Positions 3,968 to 64,000 of a stretch of DNA of 64,000 nt are shown in pieces. The notes under the pieces are model-generated. The model did not search any database. It was not told the origin of the DNA and saw nothing but the letters and a program-made list of their open reading frames with translations. The first letter of the stretch is position 1. Each line of letters starts with the position of its first letter. The position numbers and the translations under genes were made by a program. Source of the stretch: an uncultured Candidatus Saccharibacteria bacterium (lineage in GTDB: Bacteria > Patescibacteriota > Saccharimonadia > CAILAD01 > JADZBC01); contig CAZCAO010000001.1 in NCBI GenBank assembly GCA_964496815.1, positions 83,198 through 147,197 of the forward strand, read 5' to 3'.

Positions 3968-5049
3968 TGGTACTGACAATTCTATTTGTCCTTTTGACCT
4001 TCTCAGTACTTGTAATCGCGCATGAATTTGGCCACTTTATTGTGGCTCGGCGCAACGGTGTTCAAGTCGATGAGTTTGGCATTGGGTTCCCGCCAAAGAT
4101 CTGGGGCATGAAACGTGGCAAAACGCTCTACACAATCAACCTCCTGCCGCTCGGAGGCTTCGTTCGCCTCAAGGGCGAAGAAGGTGAATCAACCGCCAAA
4201 GACAGCTTTGGGGCACAGCGTGCCTGGGTGAAGGCCAAAATACTTTTGGCCGGCGTCACGGTTAACCTACTGATTGCCTATGTATTAATTACTACCCTGT
4301 TAATTGTAGGTATGCCACCACTCTTACCTCAAAAACTCCCAGTTGTACTCGGTATTCAGCCAGCTAGTTCCAGCAGTCAGTTAATGGTTGTGAACGTGGG
4401 GAAGAATAGTGTCGCTGCTACCGCCGGCATCAAAAGCGGAGACCGTATCATCGAGGTTAATGGAGATAAGGCCAGTACTCCAGAGGCGCTCAAGGCGAGC
4501 GTGGATAGACTCGCAGGAGATACGGCGACGATATTGATTACGCAAGGTGGTACTACTCGTACTCTTGATGTGGCGTTACCCGAGAAAACAGCAGACAAGG
4601 CGCTGTTGGGTGTTTCGACTGTGCCAGAAAGCTTGCAACGCTATCCATGGTATATCGCTCCGGTTGCTGGTGTAATGATAATTTTACAAATGATATGGGC
4701 CACGCTTGGTGCTTTTGGGGGTATGATCATTGGTCTATTTACGCGGGCAGAAGTTTCGCAAACTGTCACGGGCCCAATTGGCATAACCGCAATATTTAGT
4801 GAGGTGCTCAAATATGGCAAAAGTTACGTAATTGCCCTTATTGCCTCGGTCTCATTGTCTTTGGCAATTATTAATGCCCTGCCGCTACCGGCATTAGACG
4901 GCGGTCGATTGCTCGTCGTAGTGCTACAGAGATTCGGGCTTAAGATTACTGATCGAACCGAGGCCATCATTCATATGCTAGGCTTCGTAGCGTTAATCGG
5001 ATTGATGATTATCGTGTCAGCCGCTGACATTATTCGACTCAGCCGCTAG
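3967..5049 (+). CDS. rseP: site-2 (M50) zinc metalloprotease RseP family
   Basis: HEFGH zinc motif in TM1, a central PDZ-like segment, and NALPLPALDGG near the C-terminus. Confidence 0.88.
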   Translation: MVLTILFVLLTFSVLVIAHEFGHFIVARRNGVQVDEFGIGFPPKIWGMKRGKTLYTINLLPLGGFVRLKGEEGESTAKDSFGAQRAWVKAKILLAGVTVNLLIAYVLITTLLIVGMPPLLPQKLPVVLGIQPASSSSQLMVVNVGKNSVAATAGIKSGDRIIEVNGDKASTPEALKASVDRLAGDTATILITQGGTTRTLDVALPEKTADKALLGVSTVPESLQRYPWYIAPVAGVMIILQMIWATLGAFGGMIIGLFTRAEVSQTVTGPIGITAIFSEVLKYGKSYVIALIASVSLSLAIINALPLPALDGGRLLVVVLQRFGLKITDRTEAIIHMLGFVALIGLMIIVSAADIIRLSR

Positions 5050-15880: not shown

Positions 15881-15970
15881 GTCGCGCTAAAGAAGCATAA
15901 CTAGTTTGACAAGGCGGCAATCTAGACCCTATACTTATTACTAATAGTAAATAAACAAAGGGTGAGTAAT

Positions 15971-18629: not shown

Positions 18630-18713
18630 AAAAAAGCAGGAGGGTGCTTGACGGGCGGATTACTTCATAATGAATATTTCTACCCTAAAGCTGGCCCAAA
18701 CCTGCTTTTTTTT
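18630..18713. other. 84-nt nested hairpin element (A6GCAGG ... CCTGCT8)
   Basis: Outer 11-bp stem 18630-18640/18701-18711. Inner AGGGT/ACCCT stem 18641-45/18682-86. A-run on one side and T-run on the other, so it could act as a bidirectional terminator. Confidence 0.5.
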
Positions 18714-18928
18714 GTAGATCTACCTGGGTTCTGAGGTGGGATTCTGCATGCGTGATATCTGCCGCCCAGGTTGATCGTATGCAGGCTTCCACCCCAGACG
18801 AGGTGGACTACAGACAACCCTGGCGAACCGCCCAGGCCCTGTAGTGCCAAGACAACCAAGCATTCCTGCTTGGCCCTTGGTGCCCCGTCTGGGGCAACGA
18901 CAGCCCTGTGGGGCGGAAAGGGGCAATC

Positions 18929-19651
18929 ATGCCCATGACACCCGAAGAAAAGGCTGAGTTCGAACGTCAGCAAGCTGTGCAGAGCTGGCTGACGGACGAG
19001 CACGCTCGGACCCGCCGCGGCCTGACCGGCATCGGCCGTCGCACCGCCGGTCTGGAGCGCCACGCTGCTGCCACGGACACCACGCTCGCCGCCGTTCGCG
19101 ACGAGCAGACCGCTTCGGCGGCCTGGCGGGCGGATGTGACCGCCTGGCAGAGCGGTGTCGACGTCTGGGGGGCCGATGCGGACGCCCGCATCACCCTGGC
19201 CCAGGAGACGGCCGACCTGGCTGGCATTCGTGCCACCCAGGCCCGTGACATGGCTGCGCTCAGCATCAACGACGCGGCCCGCGCCAACCGGCGCATCACG
19301 GCGGCCACCAGCCCCGATGGCACCTGGCTGACCGGCCTCGTCACCGTGATCGGCTGGACGGCCTTGGTGCTGTTCGGTGCCTGGATGGCATCGGGGCTCG
19401 ACAACGGTCGGCGGCAGCTGGGGGACCACCCCAGCTTCCAGCCCATCGTGATCGGGGGCTGGCTCCTCGGACTGGTGTTGATCACGGTGATCACCATCGC
19501 GTCCGTGCTCAGCAGCAGCGACAACGACGTCGCTGCCCCGGCTCCGCAGCCGCAACCGGCTCCGCAGCCGCAACCGGCTCCGCAGCCGACGCCCGCCATG
19601 GGCACCCCGGCGGTCAACCCGCCCACGCCGGCACCGGCCGGCAACCGCTGA
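18929..19651 (+). CDS. GC-rich hypothetical membrane protein (helical N-terminus, 2 TM segments, PQ-repeat tail)
   Basis: ATG 18929 follows ggaaagggg. Third positions are nearly all G/C. TM segments are WLTGLVTVIGWTALVLFGAWMA and VIGGWLLGLVLITVITIASVL. Confidence 0.65.
   Translation: MPMTPEEKAEFERQQAVQSWLTDEHARTRRGLTGIGRRTAGLERHAAATDTTLAAVRDEQTASAAWRADVTAWQSGVDVWGADADARITLAQETADLAGIRATQARDMAALSINDAARANRRITAATSPDGTWLTGLVTVIGWTALVLFGAWMASGLDNGRRQLGDHPSFQPIVIGGWLLGLVLITVITIASVLSSSDNDVAAPAPQPQPAPQPQPAPQPTPAMGTPAVNPPTPAPAGNR
19538..19589 (+). repeat. 18-nt tandem repeat ccggctccgcagccgcaa, about 2.9 copies
   Basis: Copies at 19538-19555, 19556-19573 and a partial one at 19574-19589. Encodes APQPQP repeats. 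Confidence 0.85.
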
Positions 19652-19819
19652 GCGCGCAGCTCAGCAGAAGCTTCTTGGGCCGAGAGAGCGCCAGCTCTCT
19701 CGGCCTAGGGGCAACACAAGTACCTACACTTTGTGATAACTGCATTATCGTGAGCCCATAGGCCTCTCGCGATAAGTTGTTGTTCCAAAGGCCTCGAAGA
19801 CTCCTGAGAGGAGTTTGAC

Positions 19820-20809
19820 ATGAATGCATCGAGAAGGCTCCTCTTCGGGAGCTTGAGCGCGGTCTTCGCGATCGTGGGTGGGCTGCTGCTTCTGCTGCAG
19901 TTCACGTCGCCCGCCAAGGGTGACCCCACGCCCAACCCACCGTCTGCCGCGGAGTGCTTGCAGCAGTCGTTGCACACCTTCGCAGCCGACGCTGGCAAGA
20001 CCGCTCCGGACAACTACGGACCTCCCGTCGGTGGACCGAATCGGATCGACCTGGTGGAGCCGCAGTTCGATGACACGAACTGCAAGGACATGCTGATCCT
20101 GCAGTCGTCGCGTTGGCACCTCGCTACCGCAACGGCGCCGCGCAATGCGGCAGAGATCAACAAGCATGCTTCCTGGGCCGCAAAGGATGCCAAGCTGAGG
20201 GCCGCGGACTACGCGGACTTCCGCAGTGCGGCGTTCGGTGATAGCACCGGCAGGGACATCGTGCAGGTTCCGAAGGGAACGACGTACTGGACGCTTGCGG
20301 CCAAGAACGTCGGCGGGACCTGGTCGGTCTACCAGACCCAGGTGACGCTCAGCCACACCGAGCCCATGCTGGAGGTCACGACCGCGAACGGAGCGAAGAA
20401 GCTCTTCAAGTTGTCGTGCCACTTCCAGCCGGTCTCGCCCGAGGAGTTCCCAGGGGTTCCGGTGGGGCCGCCTCCGGGCGGACCGAGTTCACCGCCTCCG
20501 AGCGGTGGCTACACGCCCCCTCCGGGTACGACGCCTACCACCCCACAGGGCGGCAAGGTGGACAACCATCCCGTCGGAAACCCCCTCCCGGGCGGCGCCG
20601 GTGGACCCCAGGCGGGGAACACCGACACCACTCCGGACACGGAGGACCCCGATGGCACCCATCACGGGTCCAGTGGGTCCACGGGGTGTCACGGTGGGTG
20701 CACGGGAGGAACCCCAACCACGACCCGGCCGGTTCCGCCGAGCACGGTCGAGACCACACCGGTGACGGTTCCGGCCCCCACGGCGTCCACCACGGTCCCC
20801 GGACCGTAG
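19820..20809 (+). CDS. GC-rich secreted hypothetical protein with Pro/Thr/Gly-rich C-terminus
   Basis: RBS gagaggag. Signal-like N-terminus MNASRRLLFGSLSAVFAIVGGLLLLLQFTSPAKG. Strong GC3 bias. Confidence 0.65.
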   Translation: MNASRRLLFGSLSAVFAIVGGLLLLLQFTSPAKGDPTPNPPSAAECLQQSLHTFAADAGKTAPDNYGPPVGGPNRIDLVEPQFDDTNCKDMLILQSSRWHLATATAPRNAAEINKHASWAAKDAKLRAADYADFRSAAFGDSTGRDIVQVPKGTTYWTLAAKNVGGTWSVYQTQVTLSHTEPMLEVTTANGAKKLFKLSCHFQPVSPEEFPGVPVGPPPGGPSSPPPSGGYTPPPGTTPTTPQGGKVDNHPVGNPLPGGAGGPQAGNTDTTPDTEDPDGTHHGSSGSTGCHGGCTGGTPTTTRPVPPSTVETTPVTVPAPTASTTVPGP

Positions 20810-20845
20810 GCCCAAGACCAAGCGCACTGGATGCGCTACACCCGA

Positions 20846-52442: not shown

Positions 52443-52517
52443 GGTCCCATCGTCTAGCGGTTAGGACGCCAGGTTCTCATCCTGGTAACCGGGGTTCGAT
52501 TCCCCGTGGGATCACCA
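52443..52517 (+). tRNA. tRNA-Glu (anticodon CTC), CCA encoded
   Basis: GGTCCCA-TC-GTCT-AGCGGTTA-GGAC..CCAGG-TTCTCAT-CCTGG..CGGGG-TTCGATT-CCCCG-TGGGATC-A-CCA. Confidence 0.93.
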
Positions 52518-52519
52518 AG

Positions 52520-52560
52520 CATAAGCATTATCAACGAAGACTCCGAAAGGGGTCTTTTGT
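52520..52560 (+). repeat. direct repeat DR-1 (41 nt) abutting tRNA-Glu, contains a terminator hairpin
   Basis: cataagcattatcaacgaagactccgaaaggggtcttttgt. Matches 54518-54560 with 1 mismatch and 1 indel. Confidence 0.9.
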
Positions 52561-54420: not shown

Positions 54421-54517
54421 AGAAGCTCATTTTACCCCAAAGCCTATTTCTTGTCCCCACCAACTCATCATCTCGCTGAGCAGAGTGTTCCAATTCGATA
54501 TCGTATGGTTCATCAAT

Positions 54518-54560
54518 CATAAGCATTATCAACGAAGACTCCGAAAGGAGTCTTTTTGTA
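54518..54560 (+). repeat. direct repeat DR-2 (copy of 52520-52560)
   Basis: cataagcattatcaacgaagactccgaaaggagtctttttgt. Confidence 0.9.
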
Positions 54561-54846: not shown

Positions 54847-54959
54847 GGGGCTCGAGGGAGCATTGGGCGATTGAGGCCGTCAAAAATGCGGAGGGGTGAA
54901 GTGGCAACAGGGCCCACCCCAGAGCGACTTGAGAAATATCTCGAGTCGCTTATTTCGTT

Positions 54960-55376
54960 CTAGAACTTGAAGAAGATGTATGGTTTACGCATAAACACAG
55001 TCCCATGATGTTCTTTGGGACTCGTCTTGATAAGGTGAGTGTGCTGATGGGGCACAGAGCGCATAGTACTGTTCACTCCTCGCGCATAGACGTTATAGCC
55101 CTTTGCTTCATACTCCGCGAATATCTTCATCAGGTCAGCAGCCTCATTAGCTGTTAGCTCCGAAAGCTTAAGGACATGACGTTTAGGCAGAACTAATAAG
55201 TGATCCTTCACATCACGAGCTTCCCATAAATCGTACGAGGTCTTGTTTGGTACAATGTAGGCGTGATCTGTCTCGATAAACTTACGTTTTTTCAGCTCTT
55301 CAACATTGCAGAACGGACACGAGGCAGGGCGAAGATGTTTTTTATACTCTTTGCGGGTCTTGGGGTAGTGGAACAT
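54960..55376 (-). CDS. HIT-family nucleotide hydrolase/transferase
   Basis: HQHTHL histidine-triad motif. ATG 55376 lies 6 nt after a TATAAT (55383-55388, minus strand). The ORF-track GTG 55391 overlaps that box. Confidence 0.75.
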   Translation of the reverse strand: MFHYPKTRKEYKKHLRPASCPFCNVEELKKRKFIETDHAYIVPNKTSYDLWEARDVKDHLLVLPKRHVLKLSELTANEAADLMKIFAEYEAKGYNVYARGVNSTMRSVPHQHTHLIKTSPKEHHGTVFMRKPYIFFKF

Positions 55377-55483
55377 AGGGCAATTATACACGAGTTTGCT
55401 GCTCAGCGTTGTGCTGATTGCTCTATCTCTTAGCGAGGTATTTCTTCGGTCATCATTTCTTAGTATTGTGATACTATCTATTC

Positions 55484-56512
55484 ATGCAAGACCCTACGCC
55501 ACGCCTGAATACCAGTTCCGAACAAAATGTCATTCCACTGGCGAACCAGGTAGAAATTCGCAATTCCTTAAGCGAACACGTTGAGTGTGTGATCGAGCCT
55601 GGCGTGACACGGTATTGGGACGAGTTTCGCGTTCATGCTGAGCCGCATACTATAGCAATAGACGGTTATGTCGAAGGGCCGATTCAGCGTGATTTGCAGC
55701 GCAAGGTTATAAATCTAAACCATCACGAACGAGTTGATCGTTCATCTACGCTTGCAACCTGTCAGCAGGCACTTTTTGAGATCCGTCGCGGCTTATTTGG
55801 CGCACTGCAGCAAGACGGTGAATTTAAGGCAAAAATATGCATGAATGATTGTGATGAAGATGTCTGCACCACAGTGTTCATCCTGCGGCACCCTGAATTC
55901 TCGGCCAAGATAGACAACCCAGCTTTGAACCGATTAGTCGAAATGGAAGGGATTATGGACGTAACCGGTGGGTTCTATCCATGGCCCCAGAGCTACCCAA
56001 GCCTGGCGGAATTCTTCTGGGTATACCAGCCATACCATGAGTTCCGTAATTCTGGCGGATTGAGCCGACAAAACCCAGACGAATATCAGGCGGTTATAGA
56101 CGCGGTGGGCGAACGAATTGAGCAGCATATTACCGGCCAAGGCGGGTCTATCGAGCTCGATACACGCTACACTAAGCTCGCGCAGCAAGGTATATGGACA
56201 ATGGTAGAAGAAACCGGTCAGCACGCAAAAGTCGGTATGTTATCAGATGGTATACAGGCATTTACGAGCGTAAGCGAACTACCGAATGGCCGATACAAAT
56301 ATAGCGTTGGCAGGCTCTCTCCCTACATTCCTTTTGACCTGAATAGCCTGTATGCTTACCTTAATGACCTCGAGGGCCTTACCGGCGAAGATTGCTGGGG
56401 TGGGGGAGACACCATTGGTGGCAGCCCACGCAATGCCGGTAGCTCTATTGCCCCGTCACAAATGGCAGAGATTGTGCAGCGTTTCATTACTCCGAATAGA
56501 CCCATGAACTAG
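55484..56512 (+). CDS. hypothetical protein (342 aa)
   Basis: Long ORF with backbone-like composition. No motif I can assign. Confidence 0.6.
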   Translation: MQDPTPRLNTSSEQNVIPLANQVEIRNSLSEHVECVIEPGVTRYWDEFRVHAEPHTIAIDGYVEGPIQRDLQRKVINLNHHERVDRSSTLATCQQALFEIRRGLFGALQQDGEFKAKICMNDCDEDVCTTVFILRHPEFSAKIDNPALNRLVEMEGIMDVTGGFYPWPQSYPSLAEFFWVYQPYHEFRNSGGLSRQNPDEYQAVIDAVGERIEQHITGQGGSIELDTRYTKLAQQGIWTMVEETGQHAKVGMLSDGIQAFTSVSELPNGRYKYSVGRLSPYIPFDLNSLYAYLNDLEGLTGEDCWGGGDTIGGSPRNAGSSIAPSQMAEIVQRFITPNRPMN

Positions 56513-56590
56513 CGATGTAGCAGTACTAGTCCGAAGTCATTGTTGTACCGACCCATATGAATGTGGGCGAGGTGAGGGCAAATTAAATAC

Positions 56591-56630
56591 AAACGAATCC
56601 CCTGGCGGAGATTCGCCAGGGGCATTACAT
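56591..56630 (+). repeat. hairpin repeat B-1
   Basis: aaacgaatcccctggcggagattcgccaggggcattacat. 37 nt identical to 57269-57305. 10-bp stem cccctggcga/tcgccagggg. Confidence 0.9.
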
Positions 56631-56667
56631 GCCTACCTATATATCGCCCCAATAGACCTATGATTGC

Positions 56668-56696
56668 TTGAATATCATACTTTTTTATGTTAATAT
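56668..56696 (+). promoter_or_regulatory. promoter TTGAAT-17-TAATAT driving the GC-rich ORF
   Basis: TTGAAT at 56668-56673, TAATAT at 56691-56696, 20 nt before ATG 56717. No SD sequence. Confidence 0.5.
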
Positions 56697-56716
56697 AATA
56701 CAGTTTAAAACCGACT

Positions 56717-57199
56717 ATGATTCTGGAAAGGATCATTTTGACCACAGCAACCACGGCGCCCCACAAGGCGCCTGAACTGTCCATCGACTACAACGCCCTC
56801 GCCCTTGGCCTGAGGGTCATCAGCTCCAGCATGAGCGCAAACAATAAGGCTGCGGCTTTTCGGATCATCACAGAGAACTTCCGAGATCAGACTTGGGGGA
56901 CTTACACGTCGGGCGTGGTCGACATCCTGCTGAAGATCCTCGCGATGATCGATTCCAACGGGGACCGGATGGTGCCTCATGCAGCGGCGCGATTCATCGT
57001 CGAAGGCATGCAGCGCAGCATGCTGGAGGTGTTGAGGGAGGCATTCGTAGCCTCCCAAGACGAGGGGCATCAGCGCAAGCTGGTCCCACATCCTGGCGTG
57101 TACGGACTCGAAGCCTTTCTGGCATGCGAACTCGGGTTCATCGTGGCGGATGCCACGTACCACTTCGACGACGAGCCTCTCGCAAGCCAGCCGGCCTAG
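56717..57199 (+). CDS. GC-rich hypothetical protein (160 aa)
   Basis: Strong GC3 bias from about codon 12 onward. The first ~36 nt have backbone-like composition. The antisense 168-aa ORF is judged spurious. Confidence 0.6.
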   Translation: MILERIILTTATTAPHKAPELSIDYNALALGLRVISSSMSANNKAAAFRIITENFRDQTWGTYTSGVVDILLKILAMIDSNGDRMVPHAAARFIVEGMQRSMLEVLREAFVASQDEGHQRKLVPHPGVYGLEAFLACELGFIVADATYHFDDEPLASQPA

Positions 57200-57231
57200 C
57201 CGGCACCACACCTCTTCGGGGGCGGGACATT

Positions 57232-57264
57232 AGCACCTGCCTGCGGGGAGGTGCTTTTGTTTTA
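57232..57264 (+). terminator. intrinsic terminator
   Basis: agcacct-(10 nt)-aggtgct followed by tttgtttt. Confidence 0.7.
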
Positions 57265-57268
57265 CAGA

Positions 57269-57308
57269 AAACGAATCCCCTGGCGGAGATTCGCCAGGGG
57301 CATTATAT
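57269..57308 (+). repeat. hairpin repeat B-2
   Basis: aaacgaatcccctggcggagattcgccaggggcattatat. Copy of 56591-56630. Confidence 0.9.
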
Positions 57309-57326
57309 ATGAACCCTTATATCAAC

Positions 57327-58019
57327 CTATCGAGCAGGAGCAGTACGGACTAGCTCCAGAATGACTGCAGCCGAAATTGCTGGATTGAGGCGGCTGAAGT
57401 TAGCTGTAGATCCGTAGTAGGTCGTGACTGCTCGCTCGGCAGCAGCTCGCTCCTTGGGGCTCGTCGTGAGCTTTCGCAGTTCGCCGATGAACTGATCGCG
57501 GTCAAAACGGATCTTGTCCATCTGATGCAAGTGGCCAGACAGAACCGCTACGAAAGCCTTGGCCTCTATAAAGCTGAAGCGCGGGAACGACGGGCAGCGT
57601 CGGAACAACAGCGCAACAGCACTCAACGCATCTGGCTGATCTTGCCAGGCCGCTTCGAGCTCATGCTGCCCCCATCCAGAGCTAACGGGCTGAATAACTG
57701 CCACGCCAGCGAGCCGAACCGGCTTCTTCTTGGCTTCAGACAACCTCGCGGCAGACCTGGAATACTCGGCTGCCTCTGTCTTGTCTGCCTGGTAGCGGCT
57801 GACCGCTCTGGCAGCGTCTCCATAGCTGTAATAGGGCACTCCTGGCCTCGAATCACCTGGCGGGTAGACTGCATCTACGCCGTACTTCCACATGACCTTG
57901 CGAACTTGCGTGGCTTTCTTGTGACCAAGCATCTCAGCAATCTGAGTAAGTGTTGCGAGCGGAGGCTCTTGCTGTGCAGCCCACTCACGGCGGGACTGTT
58001 CTACTGCATCTGCCGTCAT
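57327..58019 (-). CDS. hypothetical protein with N-terminal HTH-like segment
   Basis: ATG 58019 follows ggag. LATLTQIAEMLGHKKATQVRKV looks like a helix-turn-helix. Moderately GC-rich. Confidence 0.55.
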   Translation of the reverse strand: MTADAVEQSRREWAAQQEPPLATLTQIAEMLGHKKATQVRKVMWKYGVDAVYPPGDSRPGVPYYSYGDAARAVSRYQADKTEAAEYSRSAARLSEAKKKPVRLAGVAVIQPVSSGWGQHELEAAWQDQPDALSAVALLFRRCPSFPRFSFIEAKAFVAVLSGHLHQMDKIRFDRDQFIGELRKLTTSPKERAAAERAVTTYYGSTANFSRLNPAISAAVILELVRTAPAR

Positions 58020-58134
58020 GACGGGCTCCAATATTGTCGGGTACAAGTAGTTTGAGTATATCGCTTCAGATATTTTACACAACCATAAGCTTTTATAATG
58101 GGTTATATTTCGCCGTGCCTGCTATACTAAGATC

Positions 58135-58440
58135 ATGAAGCGACGTGCGAATAGCGGAATCCTAGGAGGAATTATTTGGATCTTTGTAGCTAGTTCTGTA
58201 GCTACATTACTCCTGCGCTTCGCGTACGACCTCCATGGTCGCAGCCCAGAGGGCAAGCTCGCCACTATACTATATAGCTGGAGTAATGTATTACTCATAC
58301 CGGTAGGCTGGCTTGATCAGTACATTAGCTTGCCTAAGGCCCTGCCGAGCGGTTTTAATATCGTCATACCAATTGCTATTGGTCTGTACGTTCTGGTCGG
58401 CTGGGCGCTTTCTGCACTCATGCCTCATACGCACGATTAA
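58135..58440 (+). CDS. small membrane protein (101 aa)
   Basis: Three hydrophobic segments. TATACT (58123-58128) lies 6 nt before the ATG. Confidence 0.55.
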   Translation: MKRRANSGILGGIIWIFVASSVATLLLRFAYDLHGRSPEGKLATILYSWSNVLLIPVGWLDQYISLPKALPSGFNIVIPIAIGLYVLVGWALSALMPHTHD

Positions 58441-58485
58441 GCTATTATCAACAGAAGAACCCCCGACCTAAGCCGGGGGCCTCTG

Positions 58486-59058
58486 TCAGGGGTGTGGACC
58501 CTCTCTTTTAGCTGTTTGGTAGCGACTATGAGCATCTTGGATTTCGGTGGTGCACTCGGTAACCGCACGCTCACTGTTGCGCAGCATACGACGACAGATC
58601 AGCGTGTGCACCATGTCAATAACAATTACTAGCAGTGCAGCCAGGAACATACTGGCGACAACAACAGGCTTCATGCCATTGATGGCGCCGACAAAGCCGC
58701 AAAACACCACCACAAGCCAGATGGCCAAGCACATAGCACGAACCCGATAGATGCGTCTAGTGCACCGCACGTATGTGCTGAGTAGGTTACGCTGAGCCCT
58801 TTCGAGCGCTACGCAACCTGCCTGGACCTCCATTACGGCATTGCGTTGTGTTTGTGCCCACGCTACATGTTCAGCTGGCTCCGGGCTAGCTTGCCAAAGA
58901 GCCGACTTAAGCAAATAAGCGTTTAAGTCCGCAACGATATCATTCGCGATATCCAGCATATAACGGGTATTATCGAGCTGACTGGCATAGTGCAACTCAG
59001 CCTCAAGCTGGTCATCCGCTACCCAGAATCGAGGCAGCCTAGTCTTGCACTTAAGCAT
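58486..59058 (-). CDS. hypothetical membrane protein (190 aa)
   Basis: Soluble helical N-terminal half, then two TM segments (AIWLVVVFCGFVGAI and VVVASMFLAALLVIVI). Confidence 0.55.
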   Translation of the reverse strand: MLKCKTRLPRFWVADDQLEAELHYASQLDNTRYMLDIANDIVADLNAYLLKSALWQASPEPAEHVAWAQTQRNAVMEVQAGCVALERAQRNLLSTYVRCTRRIYRVRAMCLAIWLVVVFCGFVGAINGMKPVVVASMFLAALLVIVIDMVHTLICRRMLRNSERAVTECTTEIQDAHSRYQTAKREGPHP

Positions 59059-59127
59059 ACTGCCTCCTAGAGCAATAGTAGGTACGAAGTAAGCAGACTA
59101 TAAACTAAATACACGTAAATTACAAGG

Positions 59128-59619
59128 TTAAGTACATTTGCGTCGGGGGATAAAACGTGGCGTATTGAGCTTATAACGTGCGTAGCGAGATCCGAAGGCA
59201 GCCTCGAGCATCCGTTCTTCGCGGGCAGACTTAAATATAAACAGAGCGACGAGTGAGCCGTAGAGCGTTGCGCGAGCAATACTCGGGCGAATAATCAGTG
59301 TGCCGAGCCCCCAGAGCATAATGCCGCTATAAACCGGATGCCTTACGCGCTTGTAAAGCCCCCGTGTCAACAGCTTTGCGCCTTTGATCGGCTCGGGTAG
59401 GGCAGAGAGCGAATAGCTTCGGAGTTGCCAGAGTGCAAGCGACACCACGCCAACGCCGACAACCCTCATCATATTAGCTAGCAAAATCTGCGCCCCGCCA
59501 TCACGCCGGCCAGGGTAGTACAAGACCGCTACCATCAACACGATTTGCAAACCGATAAGTATGTAGCTGAATGTAGTCGGCTGGAGGCCGCGCCGCCCGC
59601 TGCTTTTATGCCGTTTCAT
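59128..59619 (-). CDS. isoprenylcysteine carboxyl / phospholipid methyltransferase-family membrane protein
   Basis: RHPVYSGIMLW motif and C-terminal EERMLEAAFGSRYARY. ATG 59619 lies 7 nt after TATACT. The longer ORF-track N-terminus runs through repeat C-1. Confidence 0.7.
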   Translation of the reverse strand: MKRHKSSGRRGLQPTTFSYILIGLQIVLMVAVLYYPGRRDGGAQILLANMMRVVGVGVVSLALWQLRSYSLSALPEPIKGAKLLTRGLYKRVRHPVYSGIMLWGLGTLIIRPSIARATLYGSLVALFIFKSAREERMLEAAFGSRYARYKLNTPRFIPRRKCT

Positions 59620-59650
59620 AGCCCTAAGTATAACGCTTGTGTTTAATAAA

Positions 59651-59711
59651 ATCGAGGGTACGAAAAGAGCCCCGAGAAGAGCGTTGGGGCTCTTTTCGGG
59701 GCTTGGTTGCC
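59651..59711 (+). repeat. hairpin repeat C-1
   Basis: gggtacgaaaagagccccgagaagagcgttggggctcttttcggggcttggttgcc. 54/56 identical to C-2. Stem cgaaaagagcccc/ggggctcttttcg. Confidence 0.92.
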
Positions 59712-59731
59712 CACTTGTGCTGCCGGGATGG

Positions 59732-60418
59732 CTAGCTGCGTGCTGTGTCGATGCGGAACTCGTCCACCACCACGCGCTTGCTGAACCCGGGGTCACCTGG
59801 GTATTGCACCATCACGTCGTAGACGAAGGTCAGCTTGTTGCCTTCCACCCCCTCCTCACGAAGAGCGTGTTCAGTCAGTCGCTTTTCCTTGATCTCCGAT
59901 TCTCCCCAGCTCTGTGTCTGGTAACCCCAACCGTCGATCAGGGTCTTGCTGAACCCCTCGATAGAGAAGACCTCGTCGTAGATCCGACCGTTGGTCGCCA
60001 GAAAGCCTGGCTGGTTGCCCGAATGCAGGCTGTCGTCCATCGAGTCCTGGAGGAGTCCATCGAGCCCCTGCTTGCTTCCCAGCAGCGAGATGTCAACATG
60101 GACATGTTCGATGTAAGCCACCAGGCCTTCGCCGCCCACGGTGGGCACCACGCGCGCCTGGAAGCGAATCGTCTTCGGCTTGGTGATCCGCCACGACTTG
60201 GTGTCGTAGTCGGTCGTGTAGGTCGTGACGAACTTGTACTTCTCACCAGGAACGACAGTCTCCCTGCGCAGTGCGCCTTCGCTGAGGTCGTTGCGCAAGC
60301 GCTCGAGCTTGGTGTCTGCCGGCGTAGTAGCCGATTGCTCCGAACCGGAACAGGCCACAAGGCCCAGCAAGAGCCCGGCCAAGATCAAGAGCCCGGCAAT
60401 GCGTCGCTTGGTAATCAA
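59732..60418 (-). CDS. GC-rich lipoprotein, function unknown
   Basis: Lipobox LVAC-SG after ITKRRIAGLLILAGLLLG. Strong GC3 bias. The start is TTG 60418 or ATG 60457; ATG 60457 lies only 3 nt from the -10 box. Confidence 0.7.
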   Translation of the reverse strand: MITKRRIAGLLILAGLLLGLVACSGSEQSATTPADTKLERLRNDLSEGALRRETVVPGEKYKFVTTYTTDYDTKSWRITKPKTIRFQARVVPTVGGEGLVAYIEHVHVDISLLGSKQGLDGLLQDSMDDSLHSGNQPGFLATNGRIYDEVFSIEGFSKTLIDGWGYQTQSWGESEIKEKRLTEHALREEGVEGNKLTFVYDVMVQYPGDPGFSKRVVVDEFRIDTARS

Positions 60419-60460
60419 ATTCCCATTCCTTCGTGTAGGTGCCAGAAACTGAACCATACT

Positions 60461-60489
60461 ACTATAATGAAAAAAGTATAATATGTCAA
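60461..60489 (-). promoter_or_regulatory. promoter TTGACA-17-TATAGT (minus strand)
   Basis: Plus-strand tgtcaa at 60484-60489 and actata at 60461-60466. Drives the GC-rich lipoprotein gene. Confidence 0.5.
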
Positions 60490-60505
60490 TACTAGTAATG
60501 AGAGT

Positions 60506-60564
60506 ATCGGGTACAAAAAGAGCCCCGAGAAGAGCGTTGGGGCTCTTTTCGGGGCTTGATTGCC
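60506..60564 (+). repeat. hairpin repeat C-2
   Basis: atcgggtacaaaaagagccccgagaagagcgttggggctcttttcggggcttgattgcc. Confidence 0.92.
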
Positions 60565-60571
60565 TCCAGCC

Positions 60572-60673
60572 CTACAGGCGTGCTCGGAGCACGCCTACGA
60601 GGACCAAGATGGTGACGACCACGAGGGCCGTCGCCAAGATGTTTAGGGTCCTCTCGGACAGCCGGATAGGCAC
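60572..60673 (-). CDS. 33-aa hydrophobic peptide (second gene of the pair)
   Basis: GTG start 6 nt after AGGAGG. Sequence (M)PIRLSERTLNILATALVVVTILVLVGVLRARL. GC3-rich. The stop is embedded in the hairpin aggcgtgct/agcacgcct. Confidence 0.5.
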   Translation of the reverse strand: MPIRLSERTLNILATALVVVTILVLVGVLRARL

Positions 60674-60687
60674 CTTTGACCTCCTGG

Positions 60688-60789
60688 TCACTTGAGCATC
60701 TTCGCGAAGAAGACGACGTTGGCGACGACGATCGCCGCATGGGCCACTCCCATCGAGTGGGAGTGGATGAACATGTTGATGCGTTGCAT
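60688..60789 (-). CDS. 33-aa hydrophobic His-containing peptide (first gene of the pair)
   Basis: ATG follows aaaaaaggggg. Sequence MQRINMFIHSHSMGVAHAAIVVANVVFFAKMLK. GC3-rich. 14-nt gap to the next start. Confidence 0.5.
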   Translation of the reverse strand: MQRINMFIHSHSMGVAHAAIVVANVVFFAKMLK

Positions 60790-60941
60790 GCGCACCCCCT
60801 TTTTTCGTATCTATGCGATCAGGTAGAGTGTCGACTGTGGTAACGAGGATGTGATCGGAATCCCGATCGTACACACTCTATACCTTAGTCATCACAAGCT
60901 GCCGTCCTGCACATGACGTACTGTCCAAAACGAACCTGAAC

Positions 60942-60970
60942 ATATTAACATAAAGCATAAGCTTTGTCAA
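60942..60970 (-). promoter_or_regulatory. promoter TTGACA-17-TAATAT (minus strand)
   Basis: Plus-strand tgtcaa at 60965-60970 and atatta at 60942-60947. Followed by a ~145-nt leader before ATG 60789. Confidence 0.5.
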
Positions 60971-60988
60971 TGCTCAGCGAACAGCGAC

Positions 60989-61375
60989 TTAAGCTTTGAT
61001 ATCAATGAGTTCAATGTCGAAAACCAGATCAGAATTTGGGGGAATGTTATGACTGGGGGAGCTAGTACCGTAGGCCTGAGCAGCAGGAATAATTAGCCGG
61101 CGAGTACCACCAATCTTCATGCCGGGTACGCCTTCGGTCCAACCGGCTATTACTTGGTGTAGGCCAAACGTGGCAGGATTACCAAAGTCATGGGAACTCT
61201 GAAAAATCGTGCCGTCTTTGGCCAATGCCCCGGTATAGTGAGCGGTTATTGTCGCACCCTTTGGCACTTCGGCGCCATTGCCAACCCGCAAGTCAATGCT
61301 TTCTAGCATGGCTACCTTAGCAACTGGAGTAAAGTCTTTTAGTTTTTTTCCTTCGAGCGGTTTTGATGTATTCAT
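60989..61375 (-). CDS. FKBP-type peptidyl-prolyl cis-trans isomerase
   Basis: ITAHYTGALAKDGTIFQSSHD and VIAGWTEGVPGMKIGGTRRLIIP motifs. TATAAT lies 6 nt upstream of the ATG. Confidence 0.88.
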   Translation of the reverse strand: MNTSKPLEGKKLKDFTPVAKVAMLESIDLRVGNGAEVPKGATITAHYTGALAKDGTIFQSSHDFGNPATFGLHQVIAGWTEGVPGMKIGGTRRLIIPAAQAYGTSSPSHNIPPNSDLVFDIELIDIKA

Positions 61376-61391
61376 AGAGTGATTATAGCAG

Positions 61392-61445
61392 AAACGAATG
61401 AGAGCCCCGAGGGGAGCAAGGGGCTCTCATTCGGGGCTCTTGGCA
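61392..61445 (+). repeat. hairpin repeat C-3 (diverged copy of C-1/C-2)
   Basis: aaacgaatgagagccccgaggggagcaaggggctctcattcggggctcttgg. 14-bp stem 61395-61408/61420-61433. Same gagccccgag..ggggctc..tcggggct skeleton. Confidence 0.8.
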
Positions 61446-61457
61446 GAACCTGCTGGA

Positions 61458-61997
61458 CTAGTCGATGACGACGAGGTCCACGTAGACGTAGCAGTTGCGG
61501 ATCTCGCCATCCGTCTTGCTGTGGACCAGACCACGCTCGCCGAGACCGGGATCGCAGTGCCGGCGGTCGAGCAGGTCGTGTGCCGTGCCGTTGCCGCGCT
61601 CCGAGAGGTGATCGTCGGGAGCGATGATGTCGAGCACTGGGTGGACCAGCTGCAGGTCCTTGTCGCCCAGGTGGTAGGTACCCCGAAAGATGACGCCGTC
61701 GAACAGGCCGAGCTCGAGGTGATCGAACGACTGGTTGCGGTTGGCGTACACGGCCGTGGCCCAGAAGTCGTCGACCAGCTCGGCGGTGGCCCGATCGCAG
61801 TTGGTCTCGCAGATGATCGCCTCGATGCACTGCTGAAGCGTCGGTGTGGGCAGGGTGCCTTCGCTGATCTCGTCGTCTTCTTCGATGGCGTCGATCTCGG
61901 CGATGATCGCAGGGTCAACGCTCGGGAAGGGTTCGGTGATGTCGGGGTACGTGTCGGTTGCCGGCGGGGTGCCGGTCCGGGACATGGTATCGGTCAT
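61458..61997 (-). CDS. GC-rich acidic hypothetical protein (179 aa)
   Basis: ATG 61997 follows ggaggtgg. Nearly all third positions are G/C in this frame. Three overlapping ORFs in other frames are Arg/Pro-rich and look spurious. Confidence 0.6.
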   Translation of the reverse strand: MTDTMSRTGTPPATDTYPDITEPFPSVDPAIIAEIDAIEEDDEISEGTLPTPTLQQCIEAIICETNCDRATAELVDDFWATAVYANRNQSFDHLELGLFDGVIFRGTYHLGDKDLQLVHPVLDIIAPDDHLSERGNGTAHDLLDRRHCDPGLGERGLVHSKTDGEIRNCYVYVDLVVID

Positions 61998-62047
61998 GGC
62001 CTCAGCCACCTCCGTGTTAGCCTGCATCGAATAGCAGGGTTGGGTTC

Positions 62048-62075
62048 AGTATACGCCCATAACCACTATGGTCAA
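62048..62075 (-). promoter_or_regulatory. promoter TTGACC-16-TATACT (minus strand)
   Basis: Plus-strand ggtcaa at 62070-62075 and agtata at 62048-62053. Drives the GC-rich acidic ORF. Confidence 0.45.
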
Positions 62076-62109
62076 GCCCTCTGATCAGCAGTAGGGTATA
62101 ATGGGTCTA

Positions 62110-63645
62110 ATGGCACAAATGATCATTTCTAAGTCCGAGTACATGATGTTTTTGAAACATCCTGCGTGGTTGTGGCTGAAAAAACACGATAAGTCCAAGC
62201 TCCCGCCGCCCGACGACAATTTACAGGCCATGTTTGATGCCGGCAATGCTTTTGAGGTGTATGCCGAACAACTGTTTTCAGATGGCGTGCGGCTTGGTTT
62301 TAATGATTATCAAGAATACCTTAGCCTGCCTGCAAGGACCGAAAAGGCCTTGGCCGACGGCGCCAAAACGATCTTCCAGGGTAGGTTTGAATACGGTCAA
62401 ATCACCTTTATATGTGATGTCTTACAAGTAGTAGGCGACAAGCTGGTTGACCTGACAGAAATTAAATCGAGTACCAAGGTAAAACCAGAACATGAATTAG
62501 ATTTGGCCTTTCAGGCCTATGTACTACAGCAATGCGGTTGGCAGGTTCGCAACGTCAGCGTAGTGCACGTTAATACCGACTATGTGCGCCAGGGCGAAAT
62601 TGACCCTGCCAAACTTACGGCAACCACCGACGTGACGCATGACGTAAAAATGCGTCTTGTGCAGACCGAGCGCGACATTAAGTCCGCCCTGCACGTTGTG
62701 GCCCAGCCTACCATGCCCGATCCGTCTCCAGCGCGCTGCCGTCTAGGTTGCCTACCCGAATGGATGGACATTTACCGTGGTCTGCGCACGGTAGAAAAGG
62801 GCAGTATCTATGAACTGACTCGGATTGACCCGAGCCTAATCGGGGTGCTCGAAGAAGAAGGTATCACGGAGCTCAAAAACATCCCACCAGATATCATCCA
62901 AAACGACAAACAAAAGATCCAGCTCGAAGTCGTGCGCAGCGGCAAGCCGATTATTCACAAAGACAAAATTCGAAACTTCCTGGATAGCCTAACCTACCCT
63001 CTATACTTTTTTGACTACGAAACACTCTCCAGCGTCGTGCCGTACTTCGATGGCATGCGGCCATACGCGCAGTATCCGTTCCAGTACTCCCTACACGTCA
63101 TTGATCAGCCAGGCGGAGAATTACGCCACAGTGGCTATTTGCACAGTGATAATTCCAATCCAGCAGAAGCTTTGAGTCGCACACTTACGTCACAAATCAG
63201 TACGACTGGGTCGGTACTAACCTGGTATATGCCGTTCGAAAAGTCCTGCAATACCACGCTCGGTGAGCTCGTGCCAGAATACGCCGAGTTCTACCAAGAG
63301 CTGAATAGTAGAATTATGGATCTTATGACGCCGTTTAGTAAAGGATGGTACGTCGATGCAGCCTTTGGCGGGAGTGCTAGCATTAAGAAGGTTATGCCCG
63401 CACTCATTCCAAGCCTTAGCTACAAGGAGCTCGACATTCAGGAGGGCGGCGCAGCCCAGCGACTGTGGATGGAATCAGTCCTAGATGGCAAGCACCAAGA
63501 GCAAAAGCAGGATATTTTGGCCAACCTCAATAAATACTGCGAGCTTGATACCCTGGCCATGGTGGAAATATACGATTTCCTGCAAAAGTTGGTGGCAGAA
63601 GACAGTATAGTTGGCAAACCCGTACAACTAGATTTGGACTGGTAA
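62110..63645 (+). CDS. DUF2779-like protein (PD-(D/E)xK nuclease-like N-terminus)
   Basis: ISKSEYMMFLKHPAWLWLKK N-terminus is typical of DUF2779 (from memory). TATAAT (62097-62102) overlaps ATG 62101, so ATG 62110 is favoured. Confidence 0.6.
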   Translation: MAQMIISKSEYMMFLKHPAWLWLKKHDKSKLPPPDDNLQAMFDAGNAFEVYAEQLFSDGVRLGFNDYQEYLSLPARTEKALADGAKTIFQGRFEYGQITFICDVLQVVGDKLVDLTEIKSSTKVKPEHELDLAFQAYVLQQCGWQVRNVSVVHVNTDYVRQGEIDPAKLTATTDVTHDVKMRLVQTERDIKSALHVVAQPTMPDPSPARCRLGCLPEWMDIYRGLRTVEKGSIYELTRIDPSLIGVLEEEGITELKNIPPDIIQNDKQKIQLEVVRSGKPIIHKDKIRNFLDSLTYPLYFFDYETLSSVVPYFDGMRPYAQYPFQYSLHVIDQPGGELRHSGYLHSDNSNPAEALSRTLTSQISTTGSVLTWYMPFEKSCNTTLGELVPEYAEFYQELNSRIMDLMTPFSKGWYVDAAFGGSASIKKVMPALIPSLSYKELDIQEGGAAQRLWMESVLDGKHQEQKQDILANLNKYCELDTLAMVEIYDFLQKLVAEDSIVGKPVQLDLDW

Positions 63646-63670
63646 AAGCAACCTCTGCTAGACTAGTGAT

Positions 63671-64000
63671 ATGAAGGTTATTATCGGAACAACGAGTAAG
63701 CTAAAAATCGAGACTGTAGCTCGGGCAATCAAGGGTATTGCGGGGGTTGATCCGAGTATTCGAGGCGAAGATGTAGCATCTGGCGTTCCCGACACACCTT
63801 GGGATGAACAAACCAAGCTAGGAGCTGTCAACCGAGCTCGAAGGATTTCAGAGACGCACGCAGATATATATGCGATTGGCCTCGAAAGCGGCTTAGTGAC
63901 TCGTTATGGGAACACGTATGAAGAGGCTTGGTGCTGTATTATTCATCAGGATACGGAGTATTTAGGCTACTCTAGTGGCCTCATGTTGCCTGCGATTGTA
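63671..64000 (+). CDS. inosine/xanthosine triphosphatase-like NTPase (YjjX/DUF84 family), partial at window end
   Basis: MKVIIGTTSKLKIETV...SGVPDTPWDEQTKLGAVNRA. Open to the window end. Confidence 0.55.
   Translation, partial: MKVIIGTTSKLKIETVARAIKGIAGVDPSIRGEDVASGVPDTPWDEQTKLGAVNRARRISETHADIYAIGLESGLVTRYGNTYEEAWCCIIHQDTEYLGYSSGLMLPAIV

Follow-up and report, generated by a model that had tools for sequence, protein, structure and literature searches.

The stretch of DNA analysed here (the window) comprises 64,000 nucleotides (nt) of core chromosome from an uncultured member of the Saccharimonadales (Saccharibacteria, Patescibacteria; contig CAZCAO010000001.1, positions 83,198 to 147,197). 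Within 1.8 kb of the window, three copies of one imperfect hairpin, designated C1, C2 and C3, each close a unit that consists of a promoter and one GC-rich gene or, in one case, two very small ones. These units belong to a real, lineage-specific format in which foreign single-gene units tagged by a hairpin occupy defined chromosomal gaps, and the finding is more general than the two repeats first noticed. The best reading, which we hold to be probable on balance, is that the hairpin is a terminator and insulator module doubling as a crossover point for cassettes that resemble phage morons.

Results

Three copies of one hairpin close GC-rich units

On the minus strand the order of elements is promoter, GC-rich ORFan, C3, a gene for an FKBP-type isomerase, promoter, two peptides, C2, promoter, lipoprotein gene, C1 and a gene for an ICMT/PEMT-family methyltransferase (Table 1). 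The original prediction had described a 56-nt direct repeat around the lipoprotein gene. That repeat is real: C1 and C2 lie 853 nt apart, are identical at 54 of 56 positions and extend further with a 2-nt indel (atcgagggtac versus atcgggtac), the second copy having been placed one base off. The segment present in both runs from GGCAAYCA through GTACCC(TC)GAT, and a 38-nt core of it has two matches with no mismatches in the window, where 100 shuffles gave an expectation of zero. The description as a pair was incomplete, since the diverged copy C3 had been overlooked. A profile built from 12 family members found no fourth copy in the remaining 62 kb of the window.

Read in the sense of the cassette, C1 consists of GGGCAACC-A-AGCCCCGA-AAA-GAGCCCC-AACGCTCTTC-TCGGGGCTC-TTTTCGT. 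As had been proposed, each copy lies 15-28 nt 3' of a GC-rich open reading frame (ORF) on the minus strand. The genome is compact, and each of the three hairpins has a promoter within ~10-50 nt beyond it. On the coding strand the hairpin forms a GAGCCCC...GGGGCTC stem followed by TTTT, that is, the GC-rich stem-loop and T-run of an intrinsic terminator, and an A-run provides the mirror arrangement on the plus strand. Its sequence marks the hairpin as a strong stem-loop of terminator type, on the coding strand as well as on the opposite one, in agreement with the terminator role first assigned to it, and in the window it probably acts as a terminator or as an RNA-stabilising element.

The cargo differs sharply in composition from its surroundings. 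G+C content at third codon positions (GC3) is 0.79-0.88 in the cassette genes of the window and 0.76-0.88 if a 160-amino-acid (aa) ORF at 56717-57199 is included, compared with 0.43-0.57 in native genes, and the codon-position pattern (GC1 > GC2 << GC3) is that of real genes of high-GC organisms. The piece between C1 and C2 is made up of a promoter, a 5' untranslated region (UTR), the lipoprotein ORF and, on its 3' side, a short GC-rich remnant; the lipobox protein of 228 aa (...GLVAC) and the TTGACA-17-TATAGT promoter at 60489-60461 are present as described. The lipoprotein ORF (GC 0.60, GC3 0.79) has a GAAGGAA ribosome-binding site before its TTG start and encodes a protein identical to database protein P0001; its promoter stands in an AT-rich stretch of ~100 nt in which GC falls to 0.34-0.35. 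The ORFan of cassette 3 encodes 189 aa if translated from its first ATG and 179 aa if translation begins at the ATG that follows GGAGGTGG. Every unit owns a promoter of the form TTGAC-N16-18-TAnnnT, and the promoters of different cassettes have nothing in common beyond the -35/-10 consensus. A promoter module common to the cassettes was therefore rejected, the promoters not being homologous outside these boxes.

The two 33-aa peptides of cassette 2 stand back to back behind a leader of ~150 nt from the promoter at 60970-60942. They had no family matches in the family scans, PHROGs and PADLOC included, and from their sequences could be a small membrane toxin or bacteriocin-like pair.

Table 1. 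Positions of the hairpins, cassette genes, promoters and flanking genes in the window.
Feature	Position	Strand	Remarks
ICMT/PEMT-family methyltransferase	59128..59619	-	native, conserved right flank of hot spot; Pfam PEMT/ICMT; GC3 0.60
Hairpin C1	59656..59711	-	56-nt repeat, extends to ~59651-59716
Lipoprotein ORF	59732..60418	-	cassette 1 cargo; 228 aa, TTG start, lipobox GLVAC
Lipoprotein-unit promoter TTGACA-17-TATAGT	60461..60489	-	sigma-70-type, 11/12 consensus positions
Hairpin C2	60509..60564	-	3' end of two-peptide unit (cassette 2)
Second peptide of cassette 2	60572..60673	-	33 aa, hydrophobic; GTG start after AGGAGG; GC3 0.85
First peptide of cassette 2	60688..60789	-	33 aa, hydrophobic; called as gene in contigs L012/L151; GC3 0.88
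Cassette 2 promoter TTGACA-17-TAATAT with TG	60942..60970	-	10/12 consensus positions; starts 18 nt past FKBP stop
FKBP-type peptidyl-prolyl isomerase	60989..61375	-	native; Pfam FKBP_C E=1.9e-26; GC3 0.43
Hairpin C3	61392..61443	-	diverged copy, loop TTGCTCCCC; 3' of GC-rich ORFan; FKBP -10 box directly after
GC-rich ORFan	61458..61997	-	cassette 3 cargo; GC3 0.87
Cassette 3 promoter TTGACC-16-TATACT	62048..62075	-	from consensus scan
DUF2779 gene	62101..63645	+	left flank of hot spot; Pfam DUF2779 E=2e-36

Related genomes have empty sites and different cargo in the same gaps

In two related genomes, L143 (GCA_052034495.1) and L144, FKBP is followed by ICMT across a spacer of 83 nt that holds no cassette. 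A BLAST comparison of L143 with the window places the boundaries precisely: homology stops at 60986, 3 nt past the FKBP stop codon, and resumes at 59675, in the 3' arm of C1. Window positions 59676-60985 (1310 nt, carrying the two 33-aa peptides and the lipoprotein) stand where L143 and L144 have 23 nt. The cassette-like layout originally suspected is borne out here, in that the unit of promoter, GC-rich ORF and 3' hairpin is missing from the orthologous FKBP-ICMT spacer of these relatives. The empty spacer contains a simple terminator, AAGCTCC-GTTC-GGGGCTCTTTTCGT, whose 3' arm and downstream flank are continuous with C1; this continuity marks the 3' half of C1 as the part that would be ancestral to the site.

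The contents of the two neighbouring gaps vary from genome to genome. The FKBP-ICMT gap, empty in L143 and L144, holds three genes in L146 (two of the three GC-rich, with a TTGACA promoter), nine in L147, one in L154 and two units in the window. The gap between DUF2779 and FKBP is empty in L146 and holds one GC-rich ORF with a hairpin in the window, L143, L144, L147 and L154. FKBP is the conserved gene that separates the gaps; it has 5863 relatives, of which few carry a source name, those being labelled Saccharimonadales. On the other side, the ICMT/PEMT protein of the window is 82-83% identical to its orthologues in L143, L144, L146 and L154. In a further contig, L003, at least six GC-rich units lie upstream of DUF2779 on both strands, each with a TTGAC-type promoter and three of them ending in the hairpin; the 8 kb of L003 examined yielded no FKBP homologue. 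The two adjacent hypervariable gaps between DUF2779, FKBP and ICMT are an insertion hot spot whose cargo differs by genome.

The promoter of the third cassette, which is divergent from the DUF2779 gene (62075-62048), is kept together with the 5' UTR in L143, L144 and L154. The ORFan family has four members. An orthologue stands at the same position in L154, and tblastn at that position in L143 and L144 gave weak matches of 26-31% identity, which suggests further diverged orthologues.

Two more distant relatives, L149 and L150 (1-4116), encode type I restriction-modification HsdM and HsdS within ~2 kb of FKBP, with one to three unannotated genes intervening; L149 additionally has a SNIPE/T5orf172 nuclease by FKBP. 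These two contigs suggest that the FKBP neighbourhood is a general flexible or defence region.

The hairpin belongs to a small family confined to Patescibacteria

We scanned one genome from each of 185,579 species with a strict pattern, GAGCCCCGAG N6-14 GGGGCTC N1-6 TCGGGGCT. Three loci were found, with one or two copies each, all in Saccharibacteria or Patescibacteria metagenome-assembled genomes. The original prediction had allowed that the repeat might be a frequent genome-wide terminator; the profile search of the window and the species scan together reject a frequent native terminator. A terminator brought in from high-GC donor bacteria was likewise rejected, the strict pattern being present in no genome of the species scan outside the Patescibacteria. 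Looser scans of metagenomes and viral contigs used a pattern that was too permissive and returned mostly unrelated AGCCCCGA-type terminators on contigs of 60-70% GC. The metagenome scan nonetheless added several Patescibacteria-like members, and syntenic loci supplied more, while among the viral contigs no copy of the core-family hairpin was found.

Every core member directly follows an ORF on its own strand whose GC content exceeds that of the contig, for example 0.62 versus 0.41 in L048 and 0.59 versus 0.44 in L002. Where the contig extends far enough, an AT-rich zone of ~100 nt lies beyond the ORF, and a TTGAC-type promoter is present wherever the upstream region was read. The hairpin is always in sense orientation to the upstream ORF, and the ORFs are unrelated to one another. 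That the family stands behind unrelated GC-rich ORFs in other Patescibacteria genomes further supports the likeness to gene cassettes noted at the outset.

The modules share a fixed order in the cassette sense, namely the half-site AGCCCCGA, a purine-rich linker, GAGCCCC, a short loop, TCGGGGCTC and TTTTCGT. Their conservation is much stronger than that of the genomes that carry them. At the third positions of conserved codons the window is 33-43% identical to L003, L143, L144, L146, L147 and L154, so synonymous sites are saturated; over aligned columns, loops included, C1 is 95% identical to one L003 copy (L003a) and C3 98% identical to another (L003b), with unrelated flanks and cargo. The L144 hairpin at the position of C3 is a mosaic, having C3-type arms and a C1-type loop, AACGCTCTTC. 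Hairpin identity and mosaic loops together indicate that the whole module is strongly constrained, that copies have exchanged sequence by crossovers in the conserved stems, or both.

Two competing folds are maintained

Two overlapping inverted repeats with alternative folds had been noted in each copy, and these are present and nearly isoenergetic: the folds lie within 2-4 kcal/mol of each other, with z-scores of -3.5 to -6.4. In fold A, a long hairpin, AGCCCCGA pairs with TCGGGGCT around an inner stem, for example AAGAGC/GCUCUU, and a C-rich loop; in fold B, AAAAGAGCCCC pairs with GGGGCUCUUUU. The inner stem of fold A covaries, reading AACC/GGUU in L147, GAGUC/GACUC in the L003 copy L003c, GAAGC/GCUUC in L033 and AAAGC/GCUUU in L074 and L045. 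The hairpin interior is more self-complementary than shuffled versions in 15 of 20 members (mean z -2.8). Across an alignment of 14 sequences, 93% of cells are paired in fold A and four pairs are changed on both sides, a result reached by 4 of 500 shuffles. For fold B the corresponding figures are 92% and one pair changed on both sides, figures that take in the change from AAAA/UUUU to AUGA/UCAU between C1 and C3. Both folds are thus maintained, with compensatory changes in the longer one; given a small sample of related sequences, the covariation is only moderate evidence for the folds. RNAalifold applied to 21 members recovered the invariant outer stem and nothing more, which is circular, the search pattern having demanded that stem.

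A U-run follows the 3' arm in both folds and has its mirror on the other strand, so the simplest function would be that of a bidirectional intrinsic terminator or insulator. A known RNA family or a riboswitch-like attenuator was rejected, as Rfam gave no match and the element lies 3' of ORFs rather than 5'. Over 59500-62200 no match to a curated covariance model appeared at E<=10, and in the whole window the only Rfam models to reach the gathering score were those of two tRNAs.

The lipoprotein is foreign to the lineage

The lipoprotein has 38 relatives among 5.8 billion proteins, none annotated. Their contigs (30%, 56% and 69% GC) are crowded with small unknown genes, often adjoining an N6/N4 DNA methylase, and further relatives occur as hypothetical proteins in plasmids of the Firmicutes Clostridium, Paenibacillus and Lactiplantibacillus and in two phage records. 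As to its origin, which the original prediction had raised, the lipoprotein is not native to the lineage; its relatives stand in phage, plasmid or mobile-element-like contexts. The closest of them is a GC-rich gene at the end of contig L011, adjoining lower-GC DNA, with 77% identity in amino acids and 80% in nucleotides. This copy has the 5' UTR in common with that of the window but a different 3' terminator, so the hairpin belongs to the locus and not to the gene. The initial view of the hairpin as part of the lipoprotein gene fails on this ground and on the continuity of the C1 3' half with the ancestral locus.

An AlphaFold2 model of the lipoprotein is a beta-sandwich with a predicted local distance difference test score of 88. 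Neither Pfam nor PHROGs nor PADLOC had a match, and Foldseek searches of PDB and BFVD gave weak beta-sandwich resemblance (template modelling score <=0.55); with structural neighbours that are all weak, function is not derivable. In the family alignment, EHVHVD and QDSMDDS..H motifs are invariant or nearly so and lie on the beta-sandwich, a pattern that points to metal binding or catalysis more than to a purely structural role.

The cargo proteins that were scanned gave no PHROGs matches. PADLOC and Pfam matches among GC-rich cargo were marginal or weak, comprising REase_II and GmrSD_N (a 352-aa ORF of L146), MGS (the L048 ORF) and Cyt_bd_oxida_II (one L003 ORF), and none besides.

Discussion

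A terminator that may serve as a crossover point

In the mechanism that we favour, the ~45-nt module would act as RNA or DNA in two ways. Its GC-rich stem-loop, flanked by a T-run and, at the opposite end, by an A-run, would stop transcription in both directions and insulate the neighbours from a strongly promoted foreign gene. It also forms the 3' boundary of a unit in which a sigma-70-type promoter and a short 5' UTR containing a ribosome-binding site precede an ORF of high-GC codons. C1 and C2 would be recent copies, and C3 an older one, of a module specific to Saccharimonadales/Patescibacteria. A promoter-lipoprotein unit would have been inserted beside a resident hairpin by a crossover inside it, the conserved stems supplying the crossover sequence, and near-identical C1 and C2 would be left, one on each side. 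The incoming DNA may have been a circle bearing the hairpin, or a linear piece in which the unit lay between two hairpins or flanking genes. The likeliest route would be natural transformation followed by the homologous recombination machinery of the host; natural competence and homologous integration of incoming DNA are documented in cultivated Saccharibacteria (PMC10633639). In two further cases an insert of the window likewise lies between duplications of 50-55 nt that contain terminators (described below), which speaks for the same mechanism.

Several points weigh against this mechanism. The polarity of the event, insertion here or deletion in L143 and L144, is inferred from composition alone. 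A homology of ~45-65 nt is short for RecA-dependent integration, and no circular form, empty allele of the source genome or donor copy was observed. GTACCC..GAT is common to C2 and C1 and in C1 is part of the ancestral downstream flank; C2 carries a few bases of what looks like the ancestral flank, which makes duplication of the target likelier than exchange with an independent hairpin, although the same bases also fit the transfer of a ready-assembled segment of hairpin, unit and hairpin. GC-rich islands at 1-600 and 18700-20840 lack the hairpin, so it is not needed for acquisition. The conservation of the loop and upstream half-site and the proximity of DUF2779 exceed what a terminator needs and hint at a protein partner. 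Finally, terminator activity itself is predicted.

Contig L152, which represents the same organism in a second sample, bears on the lipoprotein unit in a different way. Its positions 4740-4800 correspond to window 60570-60510, and it stops exactly at the end of C2, on the 60510 side that faces the lipoprotein promoter. An assembly branch arising from presence and absence of the lipoprotein unit might account for this stop, which is at most an indirect hint of population polymorphism of that unit.

Alternative explanations

C1 and C2 might be the product of plain local duplication or gene conversion of a native terminator, with the hairpin having no role in gene movement; its position after GC-rich ORFs would then reflect the survival of insertions that fell between a terminator and the next promoter. 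The ancestral 3' arm and downstream flank of C1 fit this account, as do the TCGGGGCTCTTTTCGT that the empty-site terminator of L143 and L144 has in common, the other terminator of the L011 lipoprotein copy and the promoters just after all three window hairpins. It leaves unexplained, however, why near-identical hairpins, loops included, stand behind unrelated cargo in saturated genomes, why all the core-family copies examined follow ORFs that are GC-rich for their contig, and why none follows any of the ~60 native genes of the window. We regard it as unlikely.

Somewhat less likely still, in our estimate, is that the hairpin is the recognition or crossover site of a dedicated, structure-specific system for cassette capture and exchange, an analogue of integrons without a tyrosine integrase. 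Its enzyme would be encoded elsewhere or next door, and the obvious candidate is the adjacent DUF2779 protein, in which a Cas4-like PD-(D/E)XK nuclease domain is joined to the DUF2779 domain (Pfam Cas_Cas4 and PADLOC Cas4 matches are weak). DUF2779 proteins are predicted to be fusions of a Cas4-like PD-(D/E)XK nuclease with a DEDD-type exonuclease, double nucleases whose role is unknown (PMC3985635, PMC13621843). The module has features that are superfluous for a terminator, the conserved upstream half-site and the conserved C-rich loop, and contains three copies of the GGGGCTC/AGCCCC motif, two direct and one inverted. A dedicated system would also account for hairpins that are 95-98% identical across synonymously saturated genomes, for the mosaic loops, and for the direct duplication of the whole hairpin with a few flanking bases around the insert.

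An association of hairpin cassettes with DUF2779 likewise speaks for such a system. Contigs L002 and L048, found by the hairpin pattern alone, both contain DUF2779 genes (L002 200-1771, L048 4433-5788; ~50% identical). The order in L002 is DUF2779, cassette, hairpin and typA, while in L048 DUF2779 lies 3.5 kb from the cassette amid a PLD nuclease, FtsK and a type I restriction R subunit. Beyond DUF2779 and the hairpin cassette no synteny links these two contigs with each other or with the window clade, so that the gene stands 0.1-4 kb from hairpin cassettes in three non-syntenic contexts. By a rough estimate, finding DUF2779 within 4 kb in two of six independent short loci has a chance probability of p ~1e-3, taking a genome of ~1000 genes. 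The association nevertheless comes from few independent loci, and DUF2779 may merely sit in flexible regions. A housekeeping role is favoured by its being a conserved single-copy gene, reported to be widespread among bacteria and, in a minimal Mycoplasma, quasi-essential; in L146 it directly adjoins FKBP with no cassette, and the 5 kb of L001 contain no DUF2779 gene. Nucleases by themselves do not integrate DNA, and the window contains no recombinase or integrase.

More far-reaching is the proposal of an unrecognised gene-capture system of Patescibacteria, analogous to integrons in function but built from other parts. High-GC ORFs, possibly derived from the host or from phages of the host, would be installed between a native-type promoter and a bistable hairpin, in an array beside DUF2779; the hairpin would be the DNA site of the system, and the nuclease would process or target it. 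This we consider quite improbable.

The hairpin could instead be a small non-autonomous element of the repetitive extragenic palindrome (REP) or miniature inverted-repeat transposable element (MITE) type, which spreads by itself, is mobilised in trans and lands downstream of genes. Its ~45 nt form a discrete unit, sharply bordered and with flanks that are unrelated between copies, its identity between distant genomes is high, and its imperfect palindrome resembles REP hairpins. Spreading elements of this kind are hard to reconcile with three clustered copies in 64 kb, with one or two strict copies in each of three genomes from the whole species scan, or with an orientation that is invariably sense to the upstream ORF. 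No single copy is flanked by a target-site duplication, and the window lacks a gene for a Y1 or any other transposase. This explanation is very improbable.

Chimeric joins at the repeat can be set aside almost entirely. In their favour, the repeat is long enough to mislead assemblers, and the independent contig L152 halts precisely where C2 ends. Against them, other assemblies contain the sequence at 100% identity (L012 covers 54936-64000, both junctions included; L152 from the second sample and L153 from a Logan run agree completely), the layout of AT-rich promoter, GC-rich ORF and hairpin recurs with proper ribosome-binding sites and starts in at least 10 other genomes, and the codon-position GC pattern is that of real genes.

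Comparison with known systems

Phage morons are independent promoter-gene-terminator units in prophages (PMC3594210). The units of the window resemble them in having one gene (or two very small ones), their own promoter and their own factor-independent terminator, these sites being predicted from sequence. They resemble them also in a GC content unlike that of the neighbours, in being missing from otherwise syntenic relatives, and in a lipoprotein family seen in phages and plasmids. Unlike morons, the window units are in core chromosome with no phage genes, several units use one hairpin family across genomes, and the hairpin is duplicated around the insert.

The resemblance to integron cassettes with attC sites, such as the Vibrio cholerae repeat arrays and clusters of attC sites lacking integron-integrases (CALINs), lies in an ORF followed by an imperfect hairpin of conserved architecture, in arrays of units beside one conserved gene, and in similar hairpins on unrelated cargo. 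Integrons differ in having an IntI integrase and RYYYAAC/GTTRRRY core sites, neither of which is found here, and the present hairpin is shorter (~45 nt). When the copies were read for the R''/L''...L'/R' boxes and core sites of attC, a partial GGGCAAC was seen 5' of some and GTTRRRY at the 3' end of none. Integron cassettes, moreover, lack promoters of their own and lie in one orientation behind a common promoter. The units described here are each self-promoted, those of L003 lie on both strands, and native genes such as FKBP stand between them. The integron reading was rejected for its missing integrase and core sites and for the promoter of each unit; the absence of both, remarked at the outset, was confirmed by Pfam scans and by reading of the copies.

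In Neisseria, minimal mobile elements consist of differing genes that are enclosed by one set of conserved flanks and exchanged through transformation and homologous recombination. Here too, conserved flanks (DUF2779, FKBP, ICMT) enclose differing cargo without mobility genes, in a group whose cultivated members are competent, and different genes between the same conserved flanks are found at both the FKBP-ICMT and the DUF2779-FKBP gap. In contrast to the Neisseria elements, a hairpin marks the ends of the cargo and is duplicated, and the cargo is compositionally foreign rather than drawn from the gene pool of the species. With REP sequences and bacterial interspersed mosaic elements, extragenic palindromes and bidirectional intrinsic terminators, the hairpin shares a GC-rich imperfect palindrome just past stop codons, with A/T runs; it differs from REP and mosaic elements in its very few, clustered copies, its tie to foreign ORFs and an extra upstream half-site that allows the second fold. 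Literature searches on acquired GC-rich genes of Saccharibacteria turned up no account of this layout.

Implications

The genomes of Saccharibacteria and other Patescibacteria are tiny, the cells depend on host bacteria on which they live, and how they gain genes is poorly understood. At this locus foreign genes follow a repeatable format, in which a native-type promoter, an ORF of high-GC codons and a conserved hairpin are placed together in gaps between core genes. That hairpin is conserved far beyond neutral expectation, with signs of recombination within it. A dedicated capture system is a less likely alternative to the terminator and crossover mechanism. If the hairpin is a terminator reused as a crossover point, it would be a model for flexible gene islands in competent, recombinase-poor epibionts, and the terminator function, if true, would offer a ready-made insulated expression site for genetic tools. 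If it has a protein partner, it would represent a new cassette system and suggest a role for the uncharacterised DUF2779 nuclease family.

Other features of the window

The window has an overall GC of 0.49 with sharp GC-rich islands inside. Housekeeping genes are distributed across it, including those for ribosomal protein S2, EF-Ts, RRF, UppS, MreBCD, PBP2, GreA, LysRS, SerRS, SecA, RF2, FtsEX, CTP synthase, ribonucleotide reductase and GluRS. A Pfam search of likely-gene ORFs of at least 120 aa found no integrase, recombinase, transposase or phage gene in the 64 kb.

Two further pairs of duplicated terminators are present. A pair of 55-nt hairpin repeats at 56591-56645 and 57269-57323, 87% identical and built from CCCCTGGCG..CGCCAGGGG with an overlapping alternative stem, encloses a promoter, a GC-rich ORF of 160 aa (56717-57199, GC3 0.76) and the terminator of that ORF. 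The repeat is the duplicated terminator of ORF 57327-58082; L143 has an orthologue of ORF 56717-57199 but one copy of the hairpin. Farther away, the last 9 nt of tRNA-Glu (52443-52517) and its terminator, 50 nt in all at 52509-52558, are repeated with 92% identity 2 kb downstream at 54507-54556. These repeats flank three genes of native GC, encoding a 156-aa unknown protein, Peptidase_S51 and a 243-aa unknown protein. L143 lacks the 2-kb block, HIT and tRNA-Glu being ~190 nt apart there. Such a duplicated tRNA-Glu 3' end has the look of an att site, though no integrase accompanies it.

The GC-rich islands at 1-600 and 18700-20840 (62-72% GC) consist of ORFans without the AGCCCCGA hairpin and have other GC-rich terminators at their ends. 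In the second island, an ORF at ~18930-19651 ends in a proline-rich PQPQPAPQP repeat, and ORF 19820-20809 encodes a signal peptide and a Pro/Gly/Thr-rich tail. Tandem repeats of 144 nt, together with shorter repeats coding for GGNTPGGEGG, occur at 16301-16611 within ORF 15962-18148, whose 728-aa product has no Pfam match and is probably a repetitive surface protein.

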